NCBI RefSeq assembly: GCF_024700885.2
Contig: NZ_CP117016.1
Direction: 5' to 3' (one strand)
DNA: 64,000 nucleotides
Source of the DNA: Escherichia coli
Lineage (GTDB): Bacteria; Pseudomonadota; Gammaproteobacteria; Enterobacterales; Enterobacteriaceae
Each line of letters starts with the position of its first letter. Position 1 is the first letter of the stretch. Positions 10,931 through 38,153 of this stretch are shown in pieces. The notes under the pieces were generated by a model that saw only the letters and a list, made by a program, of their open reading frames with translations, was not told the origin of the DNA and did no database searches. The position numbers and the translations under genes were made by a program.

Positions 10931-11081
10931 TCACAGATGTCCAAATTAACAGTATTAATATCTAACTAATTGTTTACCATCAAATAATATTTTTATTATC
11001 GTTTAATTCGAACTTGTTAATCCCGCCGGTGATACGCTTCAGAACATCCTGTTTTCTGTCGCTACTTATATCGTTCACCCT

Positions 11082-11349: not shown

Positions 11350-11404
11350 GGTGATGCTGCCAACTTACTGATTTAGTGTATGATGGTGTTTTTGAGGTGC
11401 TCCA

Positions 11405-12102: not shown

Positions 12103-12117
12103 GTTGGAGTCATTACC

Positions 12118-12273
12118 GGAATGCCTGACGGAAATGAAATTTGAAGATTTGCGCGGCATGAAAATATCCGCCATCCGCAAACTGATTTCTGATGCGCTAA
12201 AGAAAGATCTTCAGCGTCGCAAAATGAGCGCACCGTATAAGGATTTGCTGGTGAAAAAAGTGGTCTTCCAGTA
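12118..12273 (+). pseudogene. 3'-terminal remnant (about 51 codons) of the gene that preceded lafS in the Flag-2 cluster, now abutting the IS1 right end
   Basis: Open frame ...EFEDLRGMKISAIRKLISDALKKDLQRRKMSAPYKDLLVKKVVFQ* begins at the IS1 boundary with no start codon. Confidence 0.5.
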
Positions 12274-12293
12274 ATCACCAGGCGGATATAAAC

Positions 12294-13010: not shown

Positions 13011-13022
13011 AGTGAAGAAATC

Positions 13023-13886: not shown

Positions 13887-13888
13887 GC

Positions 13889-14812: not shown

Positions 14813-14850
14813 ATGCTGAATCTTTACGCATTTCTCAAACCCTGAAATCA

Positions 14851-14866
14851 CTGTATACTTTACCAG
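14851..14866. promoter_or_regulatory. LexA (SOS) box CTGTATACTTTACCAG upstream of dinB
   Basis: Matches CTGT-N8-ACAG; 17 bp upstream of the dinB start. Confidence 0.8.
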
Positions 14867-14882
14867 TGTTGAGAGGTGAGCA

Positions 14883-15938
14883 ATGCGTAAAATCATTCAT
14901 GTGGATATGGACTGCTTTTTCGCAGCGGTGGAGATGCGCGACAATCCCGCCCTGCGCGATATCCCTATTGCTATTGGCGGCAGCCGCGAACGTCGGGGGG
15001 TGATCAGCACCGCCAATTATCCCGCGCGTAAATTTGGCGTACGTAGCGCTATGCCGACAGGGATGGCGCTCAAATTATGCCCACATCTCACCTTGCTTCC
15101 GGGGCGCTTTGACGCCTACAAAGAAGCCTCAAATCATATCCGTGAAATCTTCTCGCGCTACACCTCGCGTATTGAACCGTTGTCACTGGATGAAGCCTAT
15201 CTCGATGTCACTGATAGCGTCCATTGCCACGGTTCTGCGACCCTCATCGCCCAGGAAATCCGCCAGACGATTTTCAGCGAGCTGCAACTGACGGCGTCTG
15301 CGGGCGTGGCACCAGTAAAGTTTCTCGCCAAAATCGCCTCCGACATGAATAAACCCAACGGCCAGTTTGTGATTACGCCGGCAGAAGTTCCGGCATTTTT
15401 ACAAACCTTACCACTGGCAAAAATCCCCGGCGTCGGCAAAGTCTCGGCGGCAAAACTGGAAGCGATGGGGCTGCGGACCTGCGGTGATGTACAAAAGTGT
15501 GATCTGGTGATGCTGCTTAAACGCTTTGGCAAATTTGGCCGCATTTTGTGGGAGCGTAGTCAGGGGATTGACGAACGCGATGTTAACAGCGAACGGTTGC
15601 GAAAATCCGTCGGCGTGGAACGCACGATGGCGGAAGATATTCATCACTGGTCTGAATGTGAAGCGATTATCGAGCGGCTGTATCCGGAACTTGAACGCCG
15701 TCTGGCAAAGGTGAAACCTGATTTACTGATTGCTCGCCAGGGGGTGAAATTAAAGTTTGATGATTTTCAGCAAACCACTCAGGAGCACGTCTGGCCGCGG
15801 CTGAATAAAGCTGATCTAATCGCCACCGCGCGTAAAACCTGGGATGAACGCCGCGGCGGGCGCGGTGTGCGACTGGTGGGGCTGCATGTGACGTTGCTTG
15901 ACCCTCAAATGGAAAGACAACTGGTGCTGGGATTATGA
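14883..15938 (+). CDS. dinB: DNA polymerase IV
   Basis: 351 aa; [34 protein letters not shown]-family polymerase. Confidence 0.95.
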
Positions 15939-15989
15939 TGTATACTATTATGTCTATTCTGGTGTGCATTATTATGAGGGGATCACTGT

Positions 15990-16283
15990 ATGCATCGAAT
16001 TCTCGCTGAAAAATCGGTCAATATCACTGAGTTACGTAAAAACCCAGCTAAATACTTTATTGATCAACCGGTTGCGGTTCTTTCTAATAATCGCCCCGCA
16101 GGATATCTCTTAAGTGCCAGCGCATTCGAAGCGTTAATGGACATGCTTGCTGAACAAGAGGAGAAAAAACTGGTTAAGGCGCGCTTCCGTCCGAGTGCCG
16201 CAAGATTAGAGGAAATTACACGCCGCGCTGAACAATATCTTAATGATATGACGGATGATGATTTCAATGACTTTAAGGAATAA
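15990..16283 (+). CDS. yafN: Antitoxin YafN
   Basis: 97 aa Phd/YefM-like; synteny dinB-yafN-yafO-yafP. Confidence 0.85.
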   Translation: MHRILAEKSVNITELRKNPAKYFIDQPVAVLSNNRPAGYLLSASAFEALMDMLAEQEEKKLVKARFRPSAARLEEITRRAEQYLNDMTDDDFNDFKE

Positions 16284-16285
16284 GG

Positions 16286-16684
16286 ATGCGGGTATTCAAA
16301 ACAAAACTTATTTGCCTGCAACTTACAGCAGAGGAACTTGATGCGTTAACGGCGGATTTTATTTCCTATAAGCGTGACGGTGTTTTGCCAGATATATTTG
16401 GTCGCGATGCACTCTACGACGACTCGTTTACCTGGCCATTAATCAAATTTGAGCGAGTTGCTCATATTCATCTGGCAAATGTGAATAATCCATTTCCGCC
16501 ACAGTTGCGCCAATTCAGCAGAACGAATGACGAAGCGCATTTGGTATATTGTCAGGGTGCGTTTGATGAGCAAGCATGGTTGCTCATTGCCATTCTGAAA
16601 CCTGAACCTCATAAACTGGCTCGAGATAACAACCAAATGCATAAAATTGGGAAAATGGCAGAAGCGTTTCGCATGCGTTTTTGA
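16286..16684 (+). CDS. yafO: Ribosome-dependent mRNA interferase toxin YafO
   Basis: 132 aa; coupled to yafN (3-nt gap). Confidence 0.85.
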   Translation: MRVFKTKLICLQLTAEELDALTADFISYKRDGVLPDIFGRDALYDDSFTWPLIKFERVAHIHLANVNNPFPPQLRQFSRTNDEAHLVYCQGAFDEQAWLLIAILKPEPHKLARDNNQMHKIGKMAEAFRMRF

Positions 16685-16693
16685 ATTTATATT

Positions 16694-17146
16694 ATGAATA
16701 ACATACAAATAAGAAACTATCAGCCTGGCGATTTTCAGCAACTATGCGCTATTTTCCTTAGAGCGGTTACGATGACCGCCAGTCAGCATTATTCACCACA
16801 ACAAATTGCCGCCTGGGCGCAGATTGACGAATCTCGCTGGAAGGAGAAACTCGCGAAATCACAAGTATGGGTTGCGATCATTAATGCACAACCGGTTGGT
16901 TTTATTTCCCGCATTGAACACTATATCGATATGTTATTTGTTGACCCTGAATACACCCGCCGTGGGGTTGCCAGCGCTTTGTTAAAACCTTTGATTAAGT
17001 CTGAATCCGAACTTACGGTGGACGCAAGCATAACCGCAAAACCCTTTTTTGAACGTTATGGTTTTCAGACAGTTAAGCAGCAGCGCGTTGAATGCAGGGG
17101 AGCGTGGTTTACTAATTTTTCTATGCGATATAAACCGCAACATTAA
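16694..17146 (+). CDS. yafP: GNAT family N-acetyltransferase YafP
   Basis: 150 aa; GNAT fold (…RRGVASALL…). Confidence 0.8.
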   Translation: MNNIQIRNYQPGDFQQLCAIFLRAVTMTASQHYSPQQIAAWAQIDESRWKEKLAKSQVWVAIINAQPVGFISRIEHYIDMLFVDPEYTRRGVASALLKPLIKSESELTVDASITAKPFFERYGFQTVKQQRVECRGAWFTNFSMRYKPQH

Positions 17147-17378
17147 ATTCAGCTTGCAATGAAAATAACACCCGCCTGGTATGTGCGCGTTTTCTTATTC
17201 CACAAACTGCAAGGAGGTAAATCATGACAAATCCTTTATCAATGACTCTTTGCAGACCTTTCCAGGATTAATTCTTTTTTCTTGCCCTGGATTCGTCTGC
17301 CATTTCCTGATTTTTATATTTATATACTCTAAATAATTCGAGTCGCAGTACATGCAACTTGAAGTATGACGAGTATAA

Positions 17379-17945
17379 ATGGGATGGTACATGGGCAAAT
17401 CTATTCGTCCCTTATCCGATGCGGTATTTACCATCGCATCTGATGGCCTGTGGATCGAGAGTTTAGCGATCCAACAATTACACACCACGGCAAATTTACC
17501 CAACATGCAGCGCGTAGTAGGGATGCCAGATTTACACCCCGGACGCGGCTACCCGATTGGCGCAGCGTTCTTCTCCGCAGGCCGTTTTTACCCGGCAAGA
17601 CGTCGCGGTAACGGTGCTGGAAACAGAAACGGGCCGCTACTCTGACACGCTGCGTTCGGCGCTGATTTCTCTGGATGGCGATAACGCATGGGCATTAAGC
17701 GAAAGTTGGTGCGGCACTATTCAGTGGATTTGTCCGAGTCCGTATCGGCCTCATCATGGGCGCAAAAACTGGTTTCTGGGCATGCTAACAAGCGGCTGGC
17801 GCGATTGCTGATTGCCTGGAAGCTGGAACAACAGCAACAGGAAAATAGCGCGGCGCTGAAATCGCAGTGGCGAATGTTCCATCATCAAATTGAACGTGGC
17901 AACCCGCGACGGACATTTACAGGGATGGCTTTTATCGAAGGATAA
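17379..17945 (+). pseudogene. prfH: Degenerate ykfJ (RtcB-like N-terminal fragment) and prfH (release-factor homolog) remnants, in at least three frames
   Basis: 17379..17645 reads as the RtcB N-terminus (…[17 protein letters not shown]…) and then runs out of frame; 17557..17811 and 17688..17945 carry prfH-like pieces in different frames. Confidence 0.6.
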
Positions 17946-18001
17946 TGAAGGATGAAACTGCCGGAAGGCGATTAAACGCCATCCGGCAGCAAATCAAATA
18001 A

Positions 18002-19459
18002 TTACTTCGCCGGAATTTCTTTCAGCAGTTCAGTCAGCAGTGTCCAGTAATGACCAACGCTTTCGATATGAACCTGCTCATCCGGAGAGTGCGGACCGGT
18101 GATGGTTGGCCCGATAGAAACCATGTCCATTTCCGGATACGGTTTTTTAAACAGACCACATTCCAGGCCCGCGTGGATAATCTGGATGTTCGGCGTCTTG
18201 TTGAACAGACGCTGATAGGTTTCACGCACCAGGTGCATCACCGGAGAATTAGCGTCCGGCTGCCAGCCTGGATACGCGCCTTTCGCTTCGGTTTTCGCGC
18301 CAGCCAGTTTACCCAGCGAATCCAGCATGCTCACCACGTAGTCTTTACCGCTGTCGATCAGAGAACGGATCAGGCAGTGAATTTCTACGTTATTGTCAGT
18401 CATGGTCACCACACCGACGTTCAGGGAGGTTTCGACCACACCTTTTGCCACGTCGGAGTTGCGGATCACACCGTTCGGGGTAGCGTTCAGCAGACGAATA
18501 AAGGTATCGCGAGATTTCGCAATCAGGGCAGCTTTATCGTTCGCAACAGAGTCCAGCAGCAATGCCAGATTTTTCTCTTTCTCTGCCAGCTCGTTTTTCA
18601 GGATCTCCTGATAGGTATTCACCAGAGATTTCAGTGCGTCGACTTTATCAGCTGCGACAGCAATCGTCGCAAAGGCTTCACGCGGGATGGCGTTACGCAG
18701 TGTGCCACCGTTGAAATCGATAAGGCGCAGGTCCAGCTCTTCCGCATGACCCGCCAGGAAGCGCACCAGCAGTTTGTTGGCATTACCCAGGCCAACGTGG
18801 ATTTCACCGCCGGAGTGACCGCCTTTCAGGCCTTTTAAGGTTAACTTGAAGGTTTCAAAGCCAGCTGGAACCGCTTCACGATCTAAATGCAGGTTGGAGG
18901 TAAAGTCGATACCCCCCGCGCAACCCATGTAGATTTCACCTTCCTCTTCGGAGTCGGTGTTAATCAGAATATCAGCCTGCAACCAGTTGCTCTGTAAGCC
19001 AAAAGCACCATCCATACCGGCTTCTTCGGTCATGGTCAGCAGCACTTCCAGCGGGCCGTGAACCACGTTTTCGTCAGCCAGAACCGCCAGCGCAGACGCC
19101 ATACCAATGCCGTTATCCGCACCCAGCGTGGTGCCGCGCGCTTTAACCCATTCGCCATCAATATAAGGCTGGATAGGATCTTTAGTGAAGTCATGCACAG
19201 TGTCGTTATTTTTCTGCGGCACCATATCGAGGTGGGCCTGCAAGACGACCGGTTTACGATTTTCCATACCTGCGGTAGCAGGTTTACGAATCAGGATATT
19301 ACCTACCTGATCGCGTTCGACATGGAAACCTTTCTCTTTTGCCCAACCAACAATGTATTCAGCGAGTTGCTCTTCATGATAGGACGGGTGAGGAATAGAA
19401 CAGATTTTGGCAAAAATATCCCACAGCGGCTGTGGAGATAATTGAGACAGTTCAGACAC
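18002..19459 (-). CDS. pepD: Cytosol non-specific dipeptidase (aminoacyl-histidine dipeptidase)
   Basis: 485 aa M20 family; MSELSQLSPQPLWDIFAKICSIPHPSYHEE. Confidence 0.95.
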   Translation of the reverse strand: MSELSQLSPQPLWDIFAKICSIPHPSYHEEQLAEYIVGWAKEKGFHVERDQVGNILIRKPATAGMENRKPVVLQAHLDMVPQKNNDTVHDFTKDPIQPYIDGEWVKARGTTLGADNGIGMASALAVLADENVVHGPLEVLLTMTEEAGMDGAFGLQSNWLQADILINTDSEEEGEIYMGCAGGIDFTSNLHLDREAVPAGFETFKLTLKGLKGGHSGGEIHVGLGNANKLLVRFLAGHAEELDLRLIDFNGGTLRNAIPREAFATIAVAADKVDALKSLVNTYQEILKNELAEKEKNLALLLDSVANDKAALIAKSRDTFIRLLNATPNGVIRNSDVAKGVVETSLNVGVVTMTDNNVEIHCLIRSLIDSGKDYVVSMLDSLGKLAGAKTEAKGAYPGWQPDANSPVMHLVRETYQRLFNKTPNIQIIHAGLECGLFKKPYPEMDMVSIGPTITGPHSPDEQVHIESVGHYWTLLTELLKEIPAK

Positions 19460-25837: not shown

Positions 25838-25913
25838 GCCGATATAGCTCAGTTGGTAGAGCAGCGCATTCGTAATGCGAAGGTCGTAGGTTCGACTCCT
25901 ATTATCGGCACCA
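25838..25913 (+). tRNA. thrW: tRNA-Thr (anticodon CGU)
   Basis: GCCGATATAGCTCAGTTGGTAGAGCAGCGCATTCGTAATGCGAAGGTCGTAGGTTCGACTCCTATTATCGGCACCA; cloverleaf with anticodon loop tTCGTAAt. Confidence 0.95.
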
Positions 25914-26077: not shown

Positions 26078-27268
26078 ATGATGCTGAATGCCCGCAAGGT
26101 TGAAGCTGCGAAAGGAAAAGAGAAGAGCTACAAGCTGTTTGATGGAGGTGGCCTATATCTTCAGGTCGAACCTAATGGCTCGCGTTACTGGCGTATGAAA
26201 TACCGTTTTGCTGGTAAAGAGAAACGATTGTCCTTTGGTGTTTATCCAACAGTCACACTTGCTGATGCCAGACAAAAACGAGAAGACGCGAAGAAACTAC
26301 TCGCAGCAGGTGAAGATCCCGGCGAAGTCAAAAAAGCCAAAAAGCAGGCTTTAAATGCAGCGATTGAGACACTTAACCCATTCAGAGAAGTGGCGTTAGA
26401 GTGGCACAAAATGAAATCACCCAAATGGTCTGAGGGCTATGCTTCCGACATCATTGAGGCATTCGAGAAAGACATTTTCCCGCATATTGGGCACAGACCT
26501 ATAGCTGATATTCAGCCCCTTGAACTGCTTGAAGTTCTGAGATTGATAGAAGCTCGAGGCGCTATGGAGAAAGCGAAGAAAGTCCGTCAGCGATGCGGTG
26601 AAGTTTTTCGCTATGCCATCGTAACGGGTAGGGCAATCTACAATCCGGCACCGGATCTTGCCAGTGCGATGCAAGGACATGAAGCAGTCCACTATCCATT
26701 CCTCAAAGCCAACGAACTACCGGAGTTCTTTAATGCCCTTAATTCTTATTCAGGAAGTCCAATTGTATTGTTGGGGGCGCATTTACTTATCCTGACAGGT
26801 CTACGAACTGGAGAACTACGAGCAGGTGAGTGGCGAGAGGTGGATTTTGATAATGCGGTGTGGGAGATCCCAAAAGAACGTATGAAAATGCGTAGGAGCC
26901 ATATTGTCCCGTTGTCAAAACAAGCATTATCCCATCTCAAAAGTTTGAAAGAACTAACTGGGAACTACCCGCTGATGTTCCCTGGACGCAACGATCCTAG
27001 CAAATTTATGAGTGAAGCAAGCATTAATCAGGTGTTTAAACGTATTGGATATGCAGGGCGTGTTACGGGGCATGGTTTCAGGCATACGATGAGTACAATC
27101 CTACATGAGAAAGGATTTAACAGCGCTTGGATTGAAACCCAGCTTGCTCATTCGGACAAAAACTCTATTCGTGGAATTTATAACCATGCCCAATATCTCG
27201 AAGGGAGAAGAGAAATGATGCAATGGTATGCTAATTATTTATCTGAGCTAATTGGTACTCATAAATGA
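26078..27268 (+). CDS. int: P4-type tyrosine integrase (track ORF begins at 26009; likely start MMLNARK)
   Basis: N-terminus ...YKLFDGGGLYLQVEPNGSRYWRMKYRFAGKEKRLSFGVYP (P4 integrase arm-binding domain); catalytic HGFRHT...Y near the C-terminus. Confidence 0.9.
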   Translation: MMLNARKVEAAKGKEKSYKLFDGGGLYLQVEPNGSRYWRMKYRFAGKEKRLSFGVYPTVTLADARQKREDAKKLLAAGEDPGEVKKAKKQALNAAIETLNPFREVALEWHKMKSPKWSEGYASDIIEAFEKDIFPHIGHRPIADIQPLELLEVLRLIEARGAMEKAKKVRQRCGEVFRYAIVTGRAIYNPAPDLASAMQGHEAVHYPFLKANELPEFFNALNSYSGSPIVLLGAHLLILTGLRTGELRAGEWREVDFDNAVWEIPKERMKMRRSHIVPLSKQALSHLKSLKELTGNYPLMFPGRNDPSKFMSEASINQVFKRIGYAGRVTGHGFRHTMSTILHEKGFNSAWIETQLAHSDKNSIRGIYNHAQYLEGRREMMQWYANYLSELIGTHK

Positions 27269-28089
27269 ATATTTTAAAAATTAATAATACTGATTCTCTG
27301 CTCAGAGATTACTACCAGTTGGATGAAGCTTCAGAAAAAATTGGTTGTAGTGAAAAGGATATACTCTGGTTTGCCAGAGAACGAGATGTAGAGCTATGCA
27401 TGGAATTCCATGATGATGAGTATGATGTTTCATGTGGTTTGAAGATTGATGGTCAAATGGATGAGTTCTTATCTAATCTGAAATATTTACCACGAGATAG
27501 AAATGGCAATATTATGTTGTCAGACTTAAGTTCTATAAGAATCCCTGATGAAGATAATTTAATTGATAAAAATGGTTTTATTCGATGTTTCATATCCGGT
27601 TTATGGGCTGTTGATTATGAATATAAAGATCTGTTAGTTAAGCATGAGGGGCAACCGGATTCCTGGCCTATTCATTTTCTACTGGCGGGTACGCCTAATA
27701 TAAATTGTAAGGTAATTCTTTATGTAAATTATGATGAAAAAGAAAATTATTATCTTTTTGAGGTTTTGTGGATTACAAAGGTACAGATTCAAAAATTCAT
27801 TGATATAGTCTTATGCGAACAAAAGCGGATAAAAAACGCCAATAAATATAAATCACAATCTGAGGCGCAAAAACAAAAACATGCTGTTCCTCGAGCTGAA
27901 ATACTCATGGCTATTATTTCGCTCTATCATCGTGATATGAGGCTAAGAAGAGAGAGTCCAGCAGCGATAGCTGATTATCTTTTTCAACATGCCAGTGAGT
28001 TCTGGCCTAAGACCGGAGAACCGCCTTTGAGCTATGATACTGTTGTTAGTTTGCTACGTAGTTGCATGAAAAACACTAAGTTTAACTAA
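27265..28089 (+). CDS. Hypothetical 274-aa protein, AT-rich, with an N-terminal HTH_17/AlpA-like helix-turn-helix; overlaps the integrase stop by 4 nt
   Basis: YQLDEASEKIGCSEKDILWFARE resembles Xis/AlpA/MerR-type HTH; the remainder has no recognisable motif; markedly lower GC than int. Confidence 0.5.
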   Translation: MNILKINNTDSLLRDYYQLDEASEKIGCSEKDILWFARERDVELCMEFHDDEYDVSCGLKIDGQMDEFLSNLKYLPRDRNGNIMLSDLSSIRIPDEDNLIDKNGFIRCFISGLWAVDYEYKDLLVKHEGQPDSWPIHFLLAGTPNINCKVILYVNYDEKENYYLFEVLWITKVQIQKFIDIVLCEQKRIKNANKYKSQSEAQKQKHAVPRAEILMAIISLYHRDMRLRRESPAAIADYLFQHASEFWPKTGEPPLSYDTVVSLLRSCMKNTKFN

Positions 28090-28214
28090 ATATTAACAAT
28101 TATTGTGGCTAATGATTTTGGATTTTTTTCATTAGTCACATTTTTCTCATTTATAACCTATGTTTTAATTTTCCGTGTTGAAGCCAATAGACTTAGATAA
28201 ACGGAGAATGATGA

Positions 28215-28421
28215 ATGTTATCTAAACATGATAATACTACTTTGCAACGACCTTCAATGGATTCTCTGATCGATATGAAGTTTATTACTTCCGATTGTTT
28301 ATTAAGTGATAAATGGATTTATCGATTGATTTCTCTGAATCGCTTTCCAAAACCTATAAAAATAGGTCGGATGTCACGATGGCGCGCTGCTGATTATTAT
28401 AAGTGGCGAGATGGGTTTTAA
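28215..28421 (+). CDS. alpA: AlpA-family prophage transcriptional regulator
   Basis: 68 aa; ...DKWIYRLISLNRFPKPIKIGRMSRWRAADYYKWRD matches the AlpA HTH pattern. Confidence 0.75.
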   Translation: MLSKHDNTTLQRPSMDSLIDMKFITSDCLLSDKWIYRLISLNRFPKPIKIGRMSRWRAADYYKWRDGF

Positions 28422-28537: not shown

Positions 28538-28711
28538 TTAGCCTTTAGGGTCAATCCCGCGTGATTGGAGTTCTTTGCGTAAAATTCTTTTAATCCAAGT
28601 TGCCAACGCGCTATCTCCATCTTTGCGCATTTCGTTTTCGAGTTGCAACCTAAAATCGTCGGTAAGACGCATTTGGAATGGTGGAGAACGTTTCTCTTGT
28701 GGTGTTGACAT
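28538..28711 (-). CDS. Ribbon-helix-helix (Arc/CopG-like) small DNA-binding protein, 57 aa; below the ORF-track cutoff
   Basis: Minus-strand translation MSTPQEKRSPPFQMRLTDDFRLQLENEMRKDGDSALATWIKRILRKELQSRGIDPKG; beta-strand then two helices typical of RHH. Confidence 0.6.
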   Translation of the reverse strand: MSTPQEKRSPPFQMRLTDDFRLQLENEMRKDGDSALATWIKRILRKELQSRGIDPKG

Positions 28712-28751
28712 GGTAATTACCCTAGAATATGATGACTACATGGTAATTACC
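28709..28751. promoter_or_regulatory. Two copies of CATGGTAATTACC (10-bp perfect palindrome GGTAATTACC), 30 bp apart; the first overlaps the RHH start codon; candidate operator
   Basis: Direct reading; spacing equals three helical turns; position at the divergent promoter region. Confidence 0.55.
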
Positions 28752-28842
28752 ATTGTAAGTATAGTTCGCTTGTAAAAGCAATGCCCGATTGTGCGGGAAC
28801 ACAAATCGGGCATTTAACCAACCGTTATAAGAGGTAACGAAG

Positions 28843-29016
28843 ATGGCTAAACAGAAGTGTACTTGGTTATTTGCGGCGATCAACCGCAGTCAACGCAATG
28901 CCCGTCCTGTGATGTTAAGGATCACCGCAGATAACGAGCGGTCAGCGCGGCGCAGACTTGCCCCGGACTATGTACTGAGCTTTGCCGGGCGCATTCCCTG
29001 CGGAGGTGAACATGCG
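28843..29016 (+). CDS. Small hypothetical ORF (57 aa), stop overlapping the next ORF start (ATGCGTAA)
   Basis: MAKQKCTWLFAAINRSQRNARPVMLRITADNERSARRRLAPDYVLSFAGRIPCGGEHA; translational-coupling geometry; no homology recognised. Confidence 0.35.
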
Positions 29017-29371
29017 TAATTATCCGCACCCCGGCGAACGCTGGCAGCATGAACGTGGCTGGACGGTCACGATTATCCGATTAATAGAAGCATCGCCCTC
29101 TGTGGCACTGGTTAATCCTGAATTCAGCTGTGAAGTGCTGATACGTCATGACAGCGACAACCAGCTTTCTTCCTGCCCTCTGGCATGGTTTGAACAGCGG
29201 TATACGCGCCTGTTTGATGTACCGCTCTTTAAGCCTGCACCAGCTCCTGCAGGCGGTAGTGGTTCCGGCCCGCTGACACTGCATCCGTCTGTGCTATTTA
29301 TCCGCTGGCGGGAGCGTAGCATATGGCGTTCTGCTGAGCCTGACGACGGTCACTATTCAAAGTTTCTCTGA
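29012..29371 (+). CDS. Hypothetical protein (start at MRNYPHPGERW)
   Basis: ORF in the island early-gene cluster; Gly/Pro linker in the middle. Confidence 0.45.
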   Translation: MRNYPHPGERWQHERGWTVTIIRLIEASPSVALVNPEFSCEVLIRHDSDNQLSSCPLAWFEQRYTRLFDVPLFKPAPAPAGGSGSGPLTLHPSVLFIRWRERSIWRSAEPDDGHYSKFL

Positions 29372-29402: not shown

Positions 29403-29687
29403 ATGAATATTTCAAACGGGCACAACGGTGCTCAGGGCCACACTTTGCCTGAAAAACACAATACCGGTGCTTTTGCCTATGGGTTGTCAGAGGACAGTTT
29501 CGGAAAGCTGACCCGCGCAAGAAATGCCTGCGACATGCTCCAGCTTCTCTTTTCTGAATACCCGTCTCAGGCCGGAGCACTGGACGCTGGCTGTGCGCAT
29601 GGTGTCGCCGCGCTGATGGAGTACCTGCTGGCAGATTTGACGGATATTGCACACAGCTGCGCACTGATTGAAGGAGGTGCCAGATGA
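29403..29687 (+). CDS. Hypothetical protein, 94 aa
   Basis: ORF with AGGA-like ribosome-binding site; 4-nt overlap with the next ORF. Confidence 0.45.
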   Translation: MNISNGHNGAQGHTLPEKHNTGAFAYGLSEDSFGKLTRARNACDMLQLLFSEYPSQAGALDAGCAHGVAALMEYLLADLTDIAHSCALIEGGAR

Positions 29688-30067
29688 ACCAGCCGCAGGT
29701 TTCCATTTTCCCGGCAGAAATGACCACCGCGCTTTACCGGCGGGCTATTGCTTCAGCATGGCGGCAGAAAATGCTGAACGAAACTGGCAGTGATCAGTAT
29801 GGTCCGCACAGCCTGACGGTGGAGCGTATTGAAATGGCCATTGCGCTGCATATCGAGTGCGTACTGATTAACGAGTACGGCGAAGTGCAGGGCGCCGCTG
29901 CCGCGCTGGCACTGCTGACTGACATGCTGGAGCCGTCACTGCTGACCGCGCCGCCGGTACTGACCGCGCGCGGCTGTGAAGTGATGGCGGAGATGTACCG
30001 CACGCTTCCGGCGGCCTTTGATGACTTCTGCAGTACCGGTGTGACGTTGTATGAGGGGGAAGTATGA
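29684..30067 (+). CDS. Hypothetical protein, 127 aa; stop overlaps the primase start
   Basis: Coupled series of ORFs upstream of the alpha-like primase. Confidence 0.45.
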   Translation: MNQPQVSIFPAEMTTALYRRAIASAWRQKMLNETGSDQYGPHSLTVERIEMAIALHIECVLINEYGEVQGAAAALALLTDMLEPSLLTAPPVLTARGCEVMAEMYRTLPAAFDDFCSTGVTLYEGEV

Positions 30068-32736
30068 CAATACAGACGGTTACGCAGATTTCAGCCGCCG
30101 CACGGGGGAAATGGCCCGTTATTCTGCAGATGCTGCGTATTGATGTACCTGAAAACGGCAGGCACGGTCCCTGCCCGAAATGTGGGGGCAAGGATCGTTT
30201 TCGCCTTGATGACCTTGACGGGCGCGGGACGTGGATCTGCAGCCAGTGTGGCAATGGTGACGGTCTGGATCTGGTTAAGCTCGTAACCGGTTACAGCGTC
30301 AGAAAGGCTGCGCAGGAGGTGGCGCAGGTGCTTAATGTGCCGAATATGCAGGAACTGCCTGTTAAGCCTGCCAGACAAAAAGCCCCTAAACGCGACATGG
30401 GTCTTACCGTGGCGGCGCTGATGAAAGAGAGCCACACGGGAGAAAGCGCCTATCTGACAGGAAAAGGGTTCGCCGGATACCCGGCCTCTCTGACCGGAAG
30501 CGTGCAGCATATCAGCGGTAAGGATTTCCCTGCCGGTTCCCTGCTGTTACCACTCACGACCAACACCGGAGCCGTGACCGGTGCACAGCTTATCGCCCCG
30601 ACGGGTGAAAAAAGCATACTGCCCGGCAGCACGATGAAAGGCGCGTTTGTGTCGCTCAGCCCGTTACCGTCTGAACCACCGGTACAGGTGGTGATTACCG
30701 AAGGTTACGCTACGGCGCTGACGGTAAGTCAGCTCACTGCCGGATGCGTAGTGGCTGCCATATCTGCGGGCAACCTGCCCAATGTGGCGCAGTCGCTGCG
30801 GGCACGCTGGCCTGAGGTAAAAATTATCATCGCCGGTGATAACGATTTTCAGGACGGAGATGAGAATCCCGGCAGAGCCTTTGCTGAACGGGCGGCAAAA
30901 GCTGTTGGCGGCTGGATGACGCTGCCACCAGGAGAGATTAAGGCTGACTGGAATGACTTTCATCGGGAGCACGGTATTACCCGTGCCCGTGAAGCCTTTC
31001 GCAACGGTCTGGTACTGTGCGGGGAAGGCCGCACGCAACTGCCGCACGGGTTCCGTCTTACCCAGGAATATCTCTGGTATGAAAAGCAGGTACAGCGCAA
31101 CGGTGAGACGGAGATCCAGAACGTCAAAATATGCAGCCCGCTGCGCGTGACGGCAATCACCTGCGATGCCGATGGCGGTAACTTCGGACGACTGCTGGAA
31201 TGGGAAGATACGTGGGGTGAGTGTCGCCGCTGGGCGATGCCGATGGAAATGCTGAGCGGCAGTGGTGAGGAACTGCGCCGGGTACTGCTGGTTAACGGGC
31301 TGTCTTATATCAGCACCACCGGTGAGGCACGCGCACGCCTGATGGAATATATCTCACTGTGTAAACCGGAACGCCGCGTGACCTGCGTCAGTCGTACTGG
31401 CTGGCATGGTCAGGTTTACGTCCTGCAGGATGAGGTCAGCGGTGAAGGTGCAGAGGGTGTCATTCTCCAGACCACTTCCGTGCAGGGGCGTGATTTCCGC
31501 GTGTCGGGCACAACAGAGGAATGGCGGGAGCATGTATCCCGCTACTGTACCGGCAACTCCCGCGTGGCATTTGCTGTCAGCCTGGCCTTTGCTGCACCAC
31601 TGTTACGGCTGGTTGGTATGGACGGCGGCGGCTACCACCTCAAAGGGGAATCGACAGACGGTAAGACCACCACCATGAAAGCGGCAACCTCCGTCTGCGG
31701 CGGGCCTGACTACTGGCAGACATGGCGGGCCACCGGCAACGCGCTGGAGGGATGCGCCAGCCGCCGCAACGATGCCGCCATGATGCTTGATGAGATCCGG
31801 GAAGTTGACGGACGCGAGGCAGGCAATATCGCCTACATGCTGGCAAACGGTCAGGGCAAGGGCCGTGCCGGTACGGACGGTGAGCTGCGTACCCGTAAGC
31901 AGTGGCGCCTGTTGTTCTTTTCAACTGGCGAGTTGTCTCTGACCGAACATGCGGCAAAGGCCGGTGAGCGTACTTTTGCCGGGATGGAAGTCAGGATGAT
32001 CCAGATCCCCAGCGATTCCGGGAAGTTTGGCGTTTTTGAGGAGCTGCACGGCTTCGACAGCGGCAAGGCTCTGGCAGAGCATCTTGAATGGGCCACGTCC
32101 TGCTACTACGGTTCGCCGTTCCGGGAGTGGCTGAAAGCACTGACCGCTGATCTTAACGGACTAACGGCACAGGCAAAATCGCTGATGAAGGAATATGCTG
32201 CCGCCCTGACTCCGAAAGATGCAGGCAATCAGGTGGGCCGGGCTGTGAACCGCTTTGCTCTGGTGGCGATGGCAGGTGAACTGGCAACCCGTCTGGGTAT
32301 CACCGGCTGGCCTGAGGGTGAAGCACTGCGGGCAACCCGCGTCTGCCTGAACGCATGGCTGAAAGATCGCGGGCACACCGCCAATCAGGAAGATATCGCC
32401 GCACTGGAGCAGGTTCGCAGTTTCTTTACCGCGAATCAGTACAGCCGCTTTGCAGACTGGTATGACGAGCGCAACCGCCCCGGCAATATGGTGGGCTGGC
32501 GCAGGGTGGAGAAAGGCAGTACCGCGCAGGGCACGGAAGCTGTCACTACGTTCTATGTCATGCCGTCCGGCTGGAAAGAAATCTGCAGGGGATTTGACCC
32601 GCGCAAGGTGGCGCGTCTGTGCGCAGATCGTGGATACCTGCTGCCCTCCACAGATGGCAAACTCCAGACAACCATTCGCCCGCCAGAGATGAATCCCCGC
32701 AGGCTCTATGTCTTCAACAGCGAGGTGCCTGGTTAA
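30064..32736 (+). CDS. P4 alpha-like bifunctional primase-helicase (zinc-binding primase, Toprim and D5/P-loop NTPase domains)
   Basis: CPKCGG...CSQCG zinc ribbon near the N-terminus; Toprim-like ITEGYATALT...IIAGDND; Walker A GESTDGKTT; 890 aa. Confidence 0.85.
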   Translation: MTIQTVTQISAAARGKWPVILQMLRIDVPENGRHGPCPKCGGKDRFRLDDLDGRGTWICSQCGNGDGLDLVKLVTGYSVRKAAQEVAQVLNVPNMQELPVKPARQKAPKRDMGLTVAALMKESHTGESAYLTGKGFAGYPASLTGSVQHISGKDFPAGSLLLPLTTNTGAVTGAQLIAPTGEKSILPGSTMKGAFVSLSPLPSEPPVQVVITEGYATALTVSQLTAGCVVAAISAGNLPNVAQSLRARWPEVKIIIAGDNDFQDGDENPGRAFAERAAKAVGGWMTLPPGEIKADWNDFHREHGITRAREAFRNGLVLCGEGRTQLPHGFRLTQEYLWYEKQVQRNGETEIQNVKICSPLRVTAITCDADGGNFGRLLEWEDTWGECRRWAMPMEMLSGSGEELRRVLLVNGLSYISTTGEARARLMEYISLCKPERRVTCVSRTGWHGQVYVLQDEVSGEGAEGVILQTTSVQGRDFRVSGTTEEWREHVSRYCTGNSRVAFAVSLAFAAPLLRLVGMDGGGYHLKGESTDGKTTTMKAATSVCGGPDYWQTWRATGNALEGCASRRNDAAMMLDEIREVDGREAGNIAYMLANGQGKGRAGTDGELRTRKQWRLLFFSTGELSLTEHAAKAGERTFAGMEVRMIQIPSDSGKFGVFEELHGFDSGKALAEHLEWATSCYYGSPFREWLKALTADLNGLTAQAKSLMKEYAAALTPKDAGNQVGRAVNRFALVAMAGELATRLGITGWPEGEALRATRVCLNAWLKDRGHTANQEDIAALEQVRSFFTANQYSRFADWYDERNRPGNMVGWRRVEKGSTAQGTEAVTTFYVMPSGWKEICRGFDPRKVARLCADRGYLLPSTDGKLQTTIRPPEMNPRRLYVFNSEVPG

Positions 32737-33136: not shown

Positions 33137-33880
33137 ATGAACAATACCGCAGTAAATAACAACCTTTCCACTTTTCCGGCTGTAACGCAGCGGGCACTGG
33201 AAACCATGAACACAGCCAGAAACGCATGGCTTGAAGCACGTCGTCAGCAGAAAGCGGCAGCGGATAATATTGCGACAATCCGCCAGCGTCGCGCTGAAAT
33301 GGAAGCCACGACGAACACACTGAATGAGGAGTGGCGCACGCTGTTTCGTGAAAGTCAGGGCGTGATCTCAAAGGAAATGAAAAAACTGCGCACGGAAATT
33401 GCGCTGGGACGAGAAACGCTTGAGGATTTTGATGAGCTGCTGGCGGCTCAGGAAAGCGAAAATGCACTTTTGCCGCAGAAAGCTGCAGAATTAGCCGGAA
33501 AGTATATCCACGCGCATAACATTCTTGTGGATATTCGCGCAAAACAAATCTGGGAGGATTTTATGCAGTCGCATGGAAAAGTGCTTATTCAGACGCTGAG
33601 CCTGCTTAAATCCACAATGGGCCGGGAAGCCAGTGCCGTTGTGGGTGTGGTGAATTCAGTTAATGACCCGGACACAGTGCTGAAAGACTTTATTCATAAA
33701 TATATCACCAGACCGGCTCTGGCTAACGATGCGATGCCTGAGCAGGACCCGGTGTTTAAACTGGCGGGAGTTGCCCCGGATTATGCGGCGCGTCTGGATT
33801 TCAGTAATCAACTCTCTCCGGCAGCTATGCATAAAATTAAGGTTCGTCAGGAACTTGCTGAGAAGGAGAAAGCAGTATGA
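33137..33880 (+). CDS. Hypothetical alpha-helical or coiled-coil protein, 247 aa
   Basis: A/E/R/Q-rich predicted helices; size and position are only suggestive of a Sid-like scaffold protein. Confidence 0.45.
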   Translation: MNNTAVNNNLSTFPAVTQRALETMNTARNAWLEARRQQKAAADNIATIRQRRAEMEATTNTLNEEWRTLFRESQGVISKEMKKLRTEIALGRETLEDFDELLAAQESENALLPQKAAELAGKYIHAHNILVDIRAKQIWEDFMQSHGKVLIQTLSLLKSTMGREASAVVGVVNSVNDPDTVLKDFIHKYITRPALANDAMPEQDPVFKLAGVAPDYAARLDFSNQLSPAAMHKIKVRQELAEKEKAV

Positions 33881-34428
33881 CGGCCCGAGGCACGCCTGAC
33901 CAGGCACTTACCAGTTTTCGGAATGCCCGTATTCTGTGGGCCGGACATAATGAGAGCCGAAAAGCCGTTGAACAACAGATAACATCTCTCCTCGCTGCCA
34001 CAGAAAAACCAGCAGATTATGCCCGACAGCTCGAATTACTGCGGGAACGTCTGGATGTGCTGAAATGGCAAATTAACTGTGCTGCGCGCGAATGCATTTA
34101 CTCGCAGCATTTACTGATGGAGGCCTGCACAGAAGCCGCTCTCAGCAATTTTATGCAGGCGAATGGGGCAGCCCTGACATCTGCACTGGCTCCGTTCCTG
34201 AAGGGGCGCGGAGGGGTTGACGTTGCGTCCCGTATATTACGCAGTGCTCTGGTTCGCCAGCTGGCAATAACACCGCCTGAATTTGCCGGGGATTATCGTG
34301 AGATCCTGGATGAATCCGGTTTGATGCTTGACCCCGGGATGATTCGTGATTGCCAGGGTTCTTACACCCCGGCACAACATCTGCGTTTTCAGCAACGCCT
34401 GAATGACATTAACGATATACAGGAGTGA
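33877..34428 (+). CDS. Hypothetical protein, 183 aa, coupled to the previous ORF
   Basis: 4-nt overlap with 33137..33880. Confidence 0.45.
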   Translation: MTARGTPDQALTSFRNARILWAGHNESRKAVEQQITSLLAATEKPADYARQLELLRERLDVLKWQINCAARECIYSQHLLMEACTEAALSNFMQANGAALTSALAPFLKGRGGVDVASRILRSALVRQLAITPPEFAGDYREILDESGLMLDPGMIRDCQGSYTPAQHLRFQQRLNDINDIQE

Positions 34429-34433
34429 TATTA

Positions 34434-34706
34434 ATGGCACTTAAATGTCCGGAATGCGGTACAGTTGCACACGCCAGAACAGCAGCCTATGAAGCTCCGT
34501 CAGTTAAACGCTCGTGGTATCAGTGCCAGAATCTGGAATGTTCCTGCACATTTACGGCACTGGAGAGTGTGGATAAGATAATCATGAAACCCCGGCGCAA
34601 TGAACAGGAACCAGACAAATCACAAACCCCGGTAAAACAACAGCAAACGCTCAATCGCTATGGCTCCGCGTCAAAACTGTCAAGCCGTCAGCAGATTCCT
34701 GTCTGA
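34434..34706 (+). CDS. Ogr/Delta-family zinc-finger late transcription activator (start at MALKCPECG)
   Basis: CPECG-N-H...YQCQNLECSCTF four-Cys zinc-finger pattern of P2 Ogr and P4 Delta. Confidence 0.8.
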   Translation: MALKCPECGTVAHARTAAYEAPSVKRSWYQCQNLECSCTFTALESVDKIIMKPRRNEQEPDKSQTPVKQQQTLNRYGSASKLSSRQQIPV

Positions 34707-35299
34707 TTAGAAAAAAAATGCCCACGTAATCCCGGTCGAGTACTGGGATTTTTAACACCTTACCCCTGGCTGGCCTGAGAGCGCATGAGTGCATGTCTAT
34801 GGCGCATGAAAACGCATGAGTCTCATGCACCATTTTTGACGCGAAAGCCCTTGTGTGGTGGCTTCTGAGACGATTAATGAGGTGCATGAAAACCAGTCTG
34901 TTAAGTGAAGCGGGAAGGCGTGCGGGGCTGCGCACGTAGCAGGGTTAAATGGTCAATTCTGGCGCAGCTCACGACATTAAGTCAGCCTCAATAGATGTAC
35001 GTGTTGGTAGGGGTAATTCGCTACTTTTTTGTATCCTAAATTGTATGGTTTGATGCTGATCGTTTCTTCACCGCACCTGCAGAGATATCAATTCAATGTG
35101 GACAAAAATGAGTCTGGCTCTTTCCGTATCACTAGAATTGCCAGTATTGTTAGGGATGATGCCCATATCATACGGAGGGAGCCAGTGGGGGCGATTGCGC
35201 GTGGAAAGTGCTTTGGATTTATTCATCGGTTTTATGATTCTACATAAGGAGCAAAGGTACTTGTATCGTATGAAAAAAAATAGTATAGATATAATGCTC

Positions 35300-35525
35300 C
35301 TTACGCGTTATGGCATAGTTATATGCTAGTCGGGCGATTAGCCAGACTCGAACTTATTGAACGGTATTAGGGTTGCGCTTGGTGTGCCTCTGGATTGCAC
35401 TCCATGCTGTCGCGCAATCCAGAGGCACACCAAGCGCTTCCTTTAGGTAAGTGAGTAAAAACAGCACCTTCTTCGATTTATGATGAAGGTGCTGCAATCG
35501 TAACGTTTTTTGTATACACGGATAG
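35300..35525 (+). ncRNA. Candidate retron non-coding RNA (msr-msd): 63-nt perfect hairpin 35375-35437 plus a second hairpin 35462-35494; boundaries and a1/a2 unresolved
   Basis: A perfect long inverted repeat immediately upstream of an effector-RT operon is the hallmark of msd; TATAAT at 35291. Confidence 0.5.
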
Positions 35526-35529
35526 TATA

Positions 35530-36498
35530 GTGGCTGAGACATACGAAGATAAAGTTGCTAATCATGTTTCAGAGTGGGAAATGGAAAATTTCCGTGTATG
35601 TTATGATGATCAGGTTATTTTCTTATGTGGTGCGGAAGTACTTCCTCAAGGAAGTGTTCAGACTTCAATGAGAGGGCATTTTTATCACTATTGCCTGAAT
35701 AAAAATAAAGATATAGCTGATAAAATAATTCTTGCCGAAAACTTCAAAAAATATCTTCAAAATAATCATTATCCAGACTTAATAACTTTTGAGCATGATG
35801 TTGCAAGTATATCTAGTTTAGTTGTTATTTTCTTGGAAAGCAGTGGTTCAATTGCTGAGTTAGGTGTTTTCTGTAATATTAGTGATGTCAATAAAAAATT
35901 ATTGATATTTGTTCCATCAGATGAAGTTGAAGGTGACAAGAAAGAGTCTTTCATTTACTTAGGGCCTTTATTGTTTTTAAAAGAAAAGGTCAATGAAAAA
36001 GCATTTAAGATTTATCCAAAACCCACTAATGGTTCTGATTACTCCGAGCATTTAGAGATTATGGCTGATGACTTGGCTGAACTATTACCTAGAAGTGGTA
36101 AGTTTGAAAGCTTCGATCCTGACAATTTAGGGCATATAGCTTTTCTTATATGCAGAATTGTGCATTTAGTAATGCCTATTAAGCTAAAGGAAATATTAAA
36201 TTGTTTAAAAATAATAGGTATCAATAAATATACTCTGACTGAGGTTGAAAGAATTTTGTTTTTATTGGAAACATTGGGTTTTATAAATATTTATCCGTAT
36301 GGCGATTTAAAATACTATTATTCAATGCAAGCCAGGCAAAATCTTAAATTAGGGAAAAATAAAACCGGATTCACAATCGATGAGGCTGGTATTTTTACTG
36401 ATATTAGTGTTTTTATCAATGACAATAAATTATGTAGTGATAAAAAAAGACGGCTGGTTTTGAAAGGCATTAAGGAGAAGCATAATGGACATAATTAA
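35530..36498 (+). CDS. Retron effector: nucleoside 2-deoxyribosyltransferase-like N-domain plus winged-helix-like C-domain (GTG start at 35530 or ATG at 35578)
   Basis: VIFLCGAEV and ESSGSIAELGVF resemble the NDT P-loop-like and catalytic-Glu motifs; overlaps the RT start by 14 nt; AT-rich. Confidence 0.6.
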   Translation: MAETYEDKVANHVSEWEMENFRVCYDDQVIFLCGAEVLPQGSVQTSMRGHFYHYCLNKNKDIADKIILAENFKKYLQNNHYPDLITFEHDVASISSLVVIFLESSGSIAELGVFCNISDVNKKLLIFVPSDEVEGDKKESFIYLGPLLFLKEKVNEKAFKIYPKPTNGSDYSEHLEIMADDLAELLPRSGKFESFDPDNLGHIAFLICRIVHLVMPIKLKEILNCLKIIGINKYTLTEVERILFLLETLGFINIYPYGDLKYYYSMQARQNLKLGKNKTGFTIDEAGIFTDISVFINDNKLCSDKKRRLVLKGIKEKHNGHN

Positions 36499-37417
36499 AA
36501 AAATCGCAGATGAAACTCTAATGCCGGTATCAAAAGTATCTGCTTTTATATTTACAGCCCCATATAGATATAAAGTATATCCCATCCCCAAAAGGAATGG
36601 TGGGTTTAGGGAGATTGCTCAACCGTCAAGGGCATTAAAGTTTATGCAAAGGATTGTTATTGCTGAACTAGAGAAAGTACTTAAGGTTCATGAAAACGCA
36701 TATGCTTATGTCAAAGGACGTAGTATAAAAGATAATGTGGAAAAGCATCAAAGAAACTCTTATATTTTGAAAGTTGATTTCTGCGACTTTTTTAATAGCA
36801 TAAACCCTTACGACCTTGAGTTATGTTTAAAAAACAATGGGTTAGACTCATTGTTAAGCTCACAAGAATTATTGAATAAACTTTTTTTCTATAAGAAAAG
36901 TAAAAGAGGTGCTTTATCAATGAGCATCGGGGCACCTAGTTCTCCATTTTTGTCAAATGCGATTATGTATAAGTTTGATTCAGTCATTAGTGATATGTGT
37001 TCAAATAAAAATATTACTTATACAAGATATGCTGATGATCTTACATTTTCTACTAATGAAAAAGGTATTTTGTATGAATTCATACATGAAATAGATAAAG
37101 TTCTTGAGGAGATAGATAGTCCTAAATTAAAACTAAATGATAAGAAAACCATATTTGCATCTAAAAAATGCAATCGTCATATAACAGGAATTGTTATTAA
37201 TAACGAAGAAAAACTTTCAATTGGTAGAGATAAAAAACGTTACTTAAGTAGTTTAATTCATAAATTCTCGCTTAATGCACTTAATGAGGAAGGAGTTGAA
37301 CATTTAAAAGGGTATTTGGCGTATGTAAATAAAATTGAACCTTCATTCATTAGCAGAATGAAAAGGAAATATGGAGTCGAAGTTGTCAACTCCATAATCA
37401 CATTTAATCCATTATAA
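36485..37417 (+). CDS. Retron-type reverse transcriptase, 310 aa
   Basis: RT motifs LKVDFCDFFNSI, SIGAPSSPFLSNAIMY, YTRYADDLTF (YADD) and the retron-specific ITGIVIN (VTG) motif. Confidence 0.85.
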   Translation: MDIIKKIADETLMPVSKVSAFIFTAPYRYKVYPIPKRNGGFREIAQPSRALKFMQRIVIAELEKVLKVHENAYAYVKGRSIKDNVEKHQRNSYILKVDFCDFFNSINPYDLELCLKNNGLDSLLSSQELLNKLFFYKKSKRGALSMSIGAPSSPFLSNAIMYKFDSVISDMCSNKNITYTRYADDLTFSTNEKGILYEFIHEIDKVLEEIDSPKLKLNDKKTIFASKKCNRHITGIVINNEEKLSIGRDKKRYLSSLIHKFSLNALNEEGVEHLKGYLAYVNKIEPSFISRMKRKYGVEVVNSIITFNPL

Positions 37418-37894
37418 ATGTGAACTTATTATATTTATAATGGTTGTGCTTTTTTCTTGTACCTTAGGGGTGTAAAAGAATGTCATCATGAAGATAATTA
37501 AAAAATGAATGGCAATAAGAGTAATAGGTAACATTTTTTCAATATCACTTAAATGGCGATGCCTTTTTTGTGTAATAACTTCCTCTTCTCTTTTGAAAGG
37601 AGTTATACCTATCTTGACCTCCATCTCCTGAATTACTGTAAACTTAGCAGCATTAATTCTTTTATAGGAAGTAATTAGATTTATCCAATAGATATTAATT
37701 ACGACTCCAGCGAGAGAGATTAAGATTACCCAAATAGGCTGTATTGTTGGCTTTAAAGAAAAATATCCAACAAGCGGTAAAATAGAAGAGTTTAAGGCTA
37801 ATAAAAATGTATTTGACTTAAGTCTTCGATCACTTATTCTATCCGCCATCTCAACGCATGTTTTATATATTTCTATGACTTTATCATCCGTCAC
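37412..37894 (-). CDS. Small multi-TM membrane protein (160 aa), SLATT-like topology; convergent on the RT, last gene before attR
   Basis: N-terminal amphipathic segment followed by 2-3 hydrophobic helices (ILPLVGYFSL..., IWVILISLAGVVINIYWINLI, LPITLIAIHFLIIFMMTFFY); AT-rich. Confidence 0.5.
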   Translation of the reverse strand: MTDDKVIEIYKTCVEMADRISDRRLKSNTFLLALNSSILPLVGYFSLKPTIQPIWVILISLAGVVINIYWINLITSYKRINAAKFTVIQEMEVKIGITPFKREEEVITQKRHRHLSDIEKMLPITLIAIHFLIIFMMTFFYTPKVQEKSTTIINIISSHL

Positions 37895-38137: not shown

Positions 38138-38153
38138 TCCTATTATCGCACCA
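38138..38153 (+). repeat. attR: TCCTATTATCGCACCA, a 15/16 match to the thrW 3' end
   Basis: Direct repeat of 25897-25913 lacking one G. Confidence 0.7.

Follow-up and report, generated by a model that had tools for sequence, protein, structure and literature searches.

An integrase-coupled gene in a P4-like satellite

We analyzed a 64,000-nucleotide stretch of Escherichia coli DNA (RefSeq assembly GCF_024700885.2, contig NZ_CP117016.1; hereafter the window), which carries a P4-like phage satellite integrated at thrW. The subject of this work is a 274-amino acid open reading frame (ORF) of the satellite, located at 27265-28089 on the plus strand with an ATG start, which we call X throughout. 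It follows a P4-type tyrosine integrase gene, int (26078..27268, +), and a hairpin (28104..28152, +) lies between it and an alpA-like regulator/excisionase gene (28215..28421, +). X is the fastest-diverging gene of this integration module, and its evolutionary pattern leads us to suggest, tentatively, that it may encode a non-enzymatic binder of phage or host proteins.

The integrase gene was assigned from its Pfam domains (Arm-DNA-bind_3, Phage_int_M, and Phage_integrase) and from the RefSeq annotation of an identical copy. Its reading frame is open from a TTG at 26009, and the RefSeq homologues begin at the ATG at 26078. The ATG of X (27265-27267) overlaps the int TGA (27266-27268) within the sequence cataaATGAat, and this ATGA overlap (27265..27268, +), read directly from the sequence, indicates translational coupling of X to int, as a first-pass annotation made from the letters alone had noted. 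The same annotation had described X as far more AT-rich than its neighbors. This holds in comparison with int and the replication and hijack genes, since the guanine-plus-cytosine (GC) content of X is 0.345 (0.284 at third codon positions, GC3) vs. 0.456 for int, 0.554 for icd, and 0.590 for the primase gene, but it does not hold for the alpA-like gene 3' of X, which is equally AT-rich (0.348). X was the most AT-rich backbone gene in all hosts examined (GC 0.34-0.43); in Aeromonas, for example, its GC content is 0.42 vs. 0.60 for int and 0.63 for the primase gene.

We conclude that X is a genuine gene, as opposed to a chance ORF, because it is carried by 65 of 5426 complete E. coli genomes (where it is annotated as "hypothetical protein" beside an integrase), has full-length homologues at 55-94% identity in addition to more distant ones, and shows a ratio of nonsynonymous to synonymous change (dN/dS) of 0.11 when compared to the ~93%-identical alleles of E. 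coli SY038 and Citrobacter sp. The ratio is low in every domain (0.04-0.18), which rules out a pseudogene or junk sequence. A few copies are disrupted: in E. coli VG12A2 an IS1 element sits inside X, in E. coli NCTC9966 an IS1 lies somewhere within the int-to-icd region, and in E. coli MS1170 and VTB97074v the match to X is 824 nt rather than 825 nt long, probably owing to a frameshift. Given these few disrupted int-X-alpA copies, we reason that the host can do without X, which is lost at times.

int and X form a transcription unit closed by a terminator

The hairpin 3' of X consists of a 12-bp stem (28104-28115 paired with 28129-28140) followed by TTTTTCTCATTT, and the corresponding RNA is predicted to fold with an energy of -15 kcal/mol (z -5.6). 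The stem is conserved among relatives and the loop is variable. In Pantoea agglomerans the pairing is preserved by double changes (U-A to C-G), and in E. coli PO06021 the stem reads GGCGAGUAAG/CUUACUCGCC (-18.9 kcal/mol). Because the stem is conserved around a variable loop, carries compensatory changes, and is followed by a T-run, the hairpin at 28104-28152 is, judged by these features, an intrinsic terminator; the same three features ruled out the dyad as an operator or an Ogr/Delta site. A terminator at this position sets the transcription of int and X apart from that of alpA, and on this sequence architecture int and X are shown to be a two-gene transcription unit, with int as the first cistron. 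The int-X junction is always tight in the Enterobacterales relatives (six other loci), with either a gap of 0-3 nt or an overlap of 8 nt.

In phage lambda, xis is translationally coupled to int. The coupling of X to int could accordingly be read as a sign that X assists the integrase as an accessory or directionality factor, a large Xis-like protein that would act at att together with Int, and such a role would also suit the constant presence of X beside a P4-type integrase and the Xis/MerR-type fold predicted for its N-terminus. Several observations count against this idea. An AlpA/Vis-type factor is already encoded next door, sibling int modules manage without X, and the winged helix predicted for X is acidic. 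Moreover, a partner of Int or att would be expected to co-vary with Int, and Int proteins that are 95-96% identical are found with X proteins that are 27-59% identical. X is therefore unlikely to be an Int-specific partner, Int being nearly constant where X varies, and we regard the directionality-factor role as very improbable.

X belongs to a rare family with a fixed place between int and alpA

An exhaustive hidden Markov model (HMM) search of 1.84 billion cluster representatives returned 43 proteins at E<=1e-3, mostly 250-330 amino acids in length and matched over their full length. None of the 43 has a name or a Pfam domain. A scan of genomes with a pattern derived from the close alignment found only three species representatives. 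By these searches, the X family is rare, gammaproteobacterial, and unnamed. In the literature we found no mention of the X accession and no description of a gene between int and alpA in P4-like elements or phage-inducible chromosomal islands (PICI).

We surveyed gene order at about a dozen independent loci, together with counts in E. coli. Integrase, X, and alpA occurred in this order on one strand in every context retrieved: in Pantoea cypripedii, P. agglomerans, and Erwinia; in a metagenomic element with a HipBA neighbor; in Aeromonas schubertii at ssrA; in Arsukibacterium and Rheinheimera, also at ssrA, in elements whose replication module is of the DnaB type and one of which has a capsid gene; and in three E. 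coli alleles. The Arsukibacterium and Rheinheimera homologues share only the N-terminal domain. Among E. coli genomes with this int lineage, counted when at least 80% of int was covered, an X-family gene follows int in 78 of 79 (65 + 13). The order is thus independent of the replication module (DUF927-primase or DnaB), of the integration site (thrW or ssrA), and of the cargo, which in the same elements varies after delta and includes a retron, SMC/AAA ATPases, a P4-cII-like gene, Kiwa, Mrr with type I restriction-modification, PIN, and SocA. Since the order is kept while the hotspot turns over, X behaves as if it belonged to the integration module rather than to the hotspot cargo. A retron-specific partner was also ruled out, as X is also found where the satellite has Kiwa, SMC-like, or restriction-modification cargo and lacks a retron.

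In sibling modules, the slot between int and alpA holds unrelated AT-rich genes (GC 0.305 and 0.368). An unrelated 212-amino acid protein fills it in leuX-type satellites (~250 E. coli satellites), which have a backbone 97% identical from icd onward, and in CP4-57 the slot is occupied by yfjH. Both resemble X in being AT-rich and in lying between a P4-type integrase and alpA. They differ from X in that neither is translationally coupled to int, and yfjH is on the opposite strand. Homology of X to the 212-amino acid protein (probability 0.6%) and to CP4-57 YfjH (E 51) was rejected. In other int modules the slot is thus filled by unrelated genes; in each X-type module examined it is filled by an X-family gene, with the alleles replacing one another.

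The first-pass annotation had raised the possibility that X is a single AT-rich cargo gene beside int, and we considered in this light whether X could be a stand-alone anti-phage or abortive-infection gene, the cargo of a small second hotspot between int and alpA. X is AT-rich like the retron cargo (0.345 vs. 0.30-0.31), it resembles a moron-like cassette with its own terminator, a few E. coli strains have copies broken by IS1 or a 1-nt deletion, and the sibling slots with their unrelated AT-rich genes point the same way. P4-like satellites are also known for defense hotspots beside int (Rousset et al. 2022, PMC9122126; NAR 2026, PMC13586616), and these hotspots share with X an AT-rich composition, proximity to int, and an arms-race-like evolution. 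They hold many unrelated, recognizable systems that turn over, however, and in the present satellite it is the region after delta, with its retron, that has this role. In the X-type slot, by contrast, there is always one family, represented by a single gene and held over very long evolutionary distances, while the true hotspot of these elements turns over completely. A comparison with known defense proteins (PADLOC-DB v2.0.0) also came back negative, with no PADLOC model matching X at E<=1; among 33 family members, seven different single weak PADLOC matches were scattered and none recurred. Neither the sequence families nor the alignment revealed a catalytic, transmembrane, or toxin signature in X, and none of 50,697 phage genomes gave a match in tblastn searches with X and with P0039, a distant member. 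Because one family is kept in the slot and no defense model matches it, X is unlikely to be ordinary defense cargo.

X is the fastest-diverging gene of its module

When the window was compared to E. coli PO06021, whose satellite occupies the same thrW site, Int was 95% identical, AlpA 73%, and X only 31%. The pattern was repeated between PO06021 and E. coli BCE049 (Int 96%, AlpA 100%, X 59%) and between Arsukibacterium and Rheinheimera (Int 92%, AlpA 72%, X 38%). Where Int is 95-96% and AlpA 73-100% identical, the X alleles are only 27-59% identical, and X is the fastest-diverging gene of its module.

The edges of the divergent segment could be placed closely. From the 3' arm of the terminator hairpin onward, PO06021 and BCE049 share 100% identical DNA; divergence grows upstream through X, and the 3' edge of the divergent cassette falls inside the hairpin loop. 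At the other end, similarity to the window ends in the last ~40 nt of int. These alignment boundaries show X to be a cassette that extends from the last int codons or stop to the terminator loop and that has passed between satellites in the form of deeply diverged allele classes. No X domain has an omega outside 0.04-0.18 within an allele class, and by this codon-level measure each class is shown to be under purifying selection. The divergence is uneven along the protein: between the window and PO06021, the N-terminal domain is 37% identical, the middle domain 19%, and the C-terminal domain 44%. The flanking control regions do not follow X. The int promoter region is 91% conserved regardless of the X allele, and the alpA leader is identical in PO06021 and BCE049 though the X recognition helices differ.

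PO06021 (12282-13100) and BCE049 (10526-11530) each have a gene annotated as "P2 family phage major capsid protein", and neither has sid or psu. By this gene content, their way of hijacking capsids differs, on a shared integration module with 95-96% identical Int. The BCE049 hotspot holds Kiwa (kwaAB).

X is predicted to combine an acidic winged helix, a variable middle domain, and a basic helical bundle

The structure of X was predicted in one AlphaFold2 model built on a shallow alignment of 17 sequences (mean predicted local distance difference test [pLDDT] 78.9, predicted template modeling score [pTM] 0.61). The model, read together with the alignments and the charge distribution, suggests three parts. 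Residues ~14-62 (27304..27450, +) form a predicted acidic winged helix-turn-helix of the MerR/Xis type; residues ~63-172 (27451..27780, +) form an acidic alpha/beta middle domain, which is the most variable; and residues ~173-270 (27781..28074, +) comprise a long basic helix and a conserved bundle of four to five helices. The long helix spans residues 172-202, with low confidence at 194-201, and the bundle, at 210-269, carries the family motif (E/Q)(R/K)HA..R.E.L.A...(F/Y)WP....PPL.

In the model, the N-terminal strand-helix-turn-helix-hairpin superimposes on solved MerR-type DNA-binding domains. The middle domain and the C-terminal bundle had no structural neighbor when the model was searched against the PDB, and the best E-value in a PDB sequence-profile search was 0.41. 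X itself had no match in Pfam (E<=1), NCBIfam, PHROGs, or PADLOC; among the 33 family members, eight matched phrog_7144, a family of unknown function. The first-pass annotation had seen an N-terminal helix-turn-helix of the AlpA/Xis/MerR type and no recognizable domain in the remainder. The latter view was borne out, since no known domain or solved fold corresponds to the remaining ~210 residues. The former was correct in part: the model supports a MerR/Xis-like winged helix, but the domain is acidic, and by sequence and profile X is not a member of the AlpA/Xis group.

Several named families were considered for X and rejected. As an AlpA/Xis member it fails on the lack of a Pfam match, with none of the 33 members matching PF05930 or PF12728, and hhalign of the family alignment against a 12-sequence AlpA alignment gave a probability of 0.2%. 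Members of the AlpA/Vis/Xis group share with the first ~60 residues of X the MerR/Xis-type winged helix, and with X as a whole the location in the satellite integration zone. They are basic, however, whereas X is acidic, has two extra domains, has no Pfam match, shows no profile-profile similarity to AlpA from the same elements, and lies just upstream of the true alpA. A small basic excisionase (~60-100 amino acids) does not fit a three-part protein of 274 amino acids. As a MerR-family transcription factor X fails in having no match to Pfam MerR or MerR_1; in the model, its winged helix is succeeded by a short helix (65-74) and a beta-rich domain, with the long helix first appearing at 172-202, unlike the dimerization helix of MerR, which directly follows the winged helix. 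No homology over the full length to a characterized excisionase or regulator family was found with Pfam, NCBIfam, PHROGs, or hhalign.

The net charge of the winged helix (residues 12-50) is -6 (isoelectric point [pI] 4.4), that of the middle domain is -9, and that of the C-terminal third is +7 (pI 9.7). Basic residues are absent from the recognition helix and wing of X. Of 33 members, 31 have an acidic winged helix, and the winged helix and middle domain are acidic across the family. Besides Met1, the only family-invariant residues are A216 and P254, with D32, G112, A207, R210, L214, W247, and L255 nearly so. The conserved residues form a structural rather than a catalytic pattern, and by this criterion X is not an enzyme.

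The combination of a winged helix with a variable domain invites comparison with Stl of the Staphylococcus pathogenicity islands (SaPIs). Stl is likewise encoded beside int in a phage satellite, has an N-terminal helix-turn-helix followed by further domains, and differs greatly among otherwise similar satellites, its variable part being thought to face helper-phage proteins. By analogy, X could be a sensor-regulator that holds alpA or int in check through its winged helix or its basic C-terminus and is released when the middle domain binds a helper protein, which would set the range of inducing helpers. The modeled MerR-type winged helix, the position of X beside int and just upstream of alpA, the hypervariability of X between otherwise similar elements, the variable, sensor-like domain between two constant ones, and the basic C-terminal part would all suit such a role. 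The swapping of AT-rich immunity-type regions as cassettes is typical of phage repressors, which would also fit.

Other observations count against this reading. The winged helix of X is acidic, with no basic residues in helix 2 or the wing, and sequence comparison revealed no operator that co-varies with X: the alpA leader is identical in PO06021 and BCE049 and the int promoter is conserved across alleles, as described above, and the sole strong dyad after X acts as an RNA terminator. A candidate immunity repressor is already present in the form of a ribbon-helix-helix gene with paired palindromic operators and a near-consensus promoter. There is no sequence or fold relationship between Stl and X, and stl is divergent from its target operon, whereas X has the same direction as int and alpA. 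With an acidic winged helix, recognition helices that differ beside an identical alpA leader, and a conserved int promoter, X is unlikely to be a classical DNA-binding regulator, and we consider an Stl-like sensor-regulator rather doubtful, if still worth bearing in mind.

A possible role for X

Since X is hypervariable between conserved flanks, its most likely target is a protein of phage or host that evolves fast. The reading that we favor, with a probability of roughly 40%, is that X may be a non-enzymatic binding factor facing such proteins, and we infer that it is not an excisionase, a classical operator-binding repressor, or a swappable hotspot defense system. X would be made in fixed proportion to the integrase whenever int is transcribed, which would occur on entry into a new cell and upon activation of int by AlpA. 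Recognition of a fast-evolving partner would fall to the variable middle domain, the partner being a helper-phage, competing-phage, or host-defense protein, while the conserved N- and C-terminal domains would supply a constant output. X could in this way serve as a built-in interference, counter-defense, or sensing factor of the satellite. This mechanism is a proposal built on the anatomy and evolutionary pattern of X described above. In a broad sense, the hypervariability may favor an anti-phage or anti-helper role.

One lead comes from the occupant of the same slot in CP4-57. yfjH has been reported to block RcaT, the toxin of retron-Sen2, in an overexpression screen (bioRxiv 10.1101/2020.06.22.160242). 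Because yfjH and X are not homologous, we take the analogy as a lead and not as evidence on X.

Several points weigh against a binding factor of this kind. The YfjH protein is not homologous to X, and the yfjH result is from a single overexpression screen. X is co-transcribed with int and not with the sid-psu-delta hijack module, which would be unusual for a helper-interference gene. The C-terminal third, being basic (pI 9.7), could bind nucleic acid, which would allow a regulatory role. The unrelated genes in the sibling slots (the 212-amino acid protein and yfjH) would also fit a simple cargo slot. Finally, the binding partner is a postulate drawn from the pattern of divergence.

A more far-reaching version of the proposal is that X represents a third, hitherto unrecognized component of the integration zone of Gram-negative satellites, both P4-like and PICI-like: a co-translated, hypervariable factor that would decide the response to helper, competitor, or host defense, and so a specificity determinant at the protein level, as Stl is in Gram-positive SaPIs, with a new fold, in which the winged helix has been repurposed for protein binding. 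We regard this version as speculative and improbable.

P4-like satellites are present in about half of E. coli genomes and have been studied for their defense hotspots and for helper-phage sensing. That X is welded to int, yet swapped as 27-59%-identical alleles, marks a point of strong diversifying pressure, and whatever X binds would likely help to determine specificity between satellite and phage or between satellite and host. As no known fold covers two-thirds of the protein, it may also be a new binding scaffold. With the window, PO06021, and BCE049, the natural allele series offers a ready-made domain-swap system. The integration zone of P4-like satellites has been described as consisting of int and alpA only (PMC10111431). 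If X proved to be inert or merely regulatory, the result would be a modest gain in annotation for about 1.5% of E. coli genomes.

Other features of the satellite

The integration target is a tRNA-Thr gene (anticodon CGU; 25838..25913, +) detected by ARAGORN and by Rfam (tRNA, 71.8 bits), and it contains the attL core CCTATTATCGGCACCA at 25898-25913. The core is repeated at attR, CCTATTATCG-CACCA (38139..38153, +), which marks the right end of the satellite. Read from the sequence and compared with the tRNA 3' end, the attR core is a degenerate repeat with a 1-base deletion. The satellite spans 12.2 kb between attL and attR, and attR adjoins the truncated remnant of a LysR-family gene.

Downstream of alpA lie a 57-amino acid ribbon-helix-helix (Arc-like) gene (28538-28711, -), an icd-like gene (28843-29019, +), a DUF5375 gene (29684-30067, +), and a primase gene with Zn_Ribbon_Prim, Toprim_3, and DUF927 domains (30064-32736, +). 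These are followed by genes for a Psu-fold protein of 247 amino acids (33137-33880, +), Psu (33877-34428, +), and Ogr_Delta (34425-34706, +). The cargo hotspot (35296-37894) holds an St85/Sen2-type retron, with an msr RNA that scores above the Rfam gathering score (35296-35365), an NDT_II-A/RcaT-like effector (35530-36498), a reverse transcriptase (36485-37417), and a convergent gene for an octameric membrane protein of the 8xMP/RipA type (37412-37894, -). Among the P4-like core genes, int, primase, the Psu-fold protein, Psu, and Ogr_Delta were matched, alpA was matched weakly, and no epsilon homologue was identified. With these core genes confirmed, the element is a P4-like satellite at thrW, and the satellite or tRNA-island setting proposed by the first-pass annotation is borne out by the tRNA-Thr site and the core genes. 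The gene order departs from that of canonical P4 in that the sid-psu-delta block and the cargo hotspot come after the primase gene and not after int, a minority arrangement in P4-like elements (PMC8628076, PMC13586616).

The alpA-like gene was assigned from a weak Pfam match (Phage_AlpA, E 2e-4), the PHROG category "excisionase and transcriptional regulator", and alignments. Its product is shortened at the C-terminus (68 amino acids, vs. 91-99 in the orthologues of E. coli SY038, Pantoea, and Erwinia), the window having TTT TAA where SY038 has TTC GAA, and the helix-turn-helix part is retained. alpA is frequently inactivated in P4-like elements (PMC8628076). The leader of the gene (28160-28215) is strongly conserved among E. 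coli, Pantoea, and Erwinia. Within it, UUCCGU can pair with the ACGGAG Shine-Dalgarno region and may sequester the ribosome-binding site, although the predicted fold (z -1.5) is not significant alone. The interval from the X terminator to alpA showed no sigma-70-like promoter.

A near-consensus promoter on the plus strand, TTGACA-17-TATGAT (28705-28733), overlaps the start of the ribbon-helix-helix gene and is flanked by two identical palindromes, ACATGGTAATTACC, at 28708-28721 and 28738-28751. From this layout, the ribbon-helix-helix gene and the palindromes are probably the repressor/operator pair of the icd-to-primase operon, which would make the gene product a candidate immunity repressor. 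Just 3' of the promoter lies a hairpin (28780-28814; -19 kcal/mol, z -2.6). The surrounding region (28777-28848) gave no C4-family match in Rfam and a weak, sub-threshold symR-like match on the minus strand. The hairpin RNA might be an immunity or antisense RNA akin to P4 CI or P1 c4.

In E. coli elppa4, a P22-like prophage (1-18226) lies directly upstream of the satellite integrase, an apparent tandem occupant of the thrW region.

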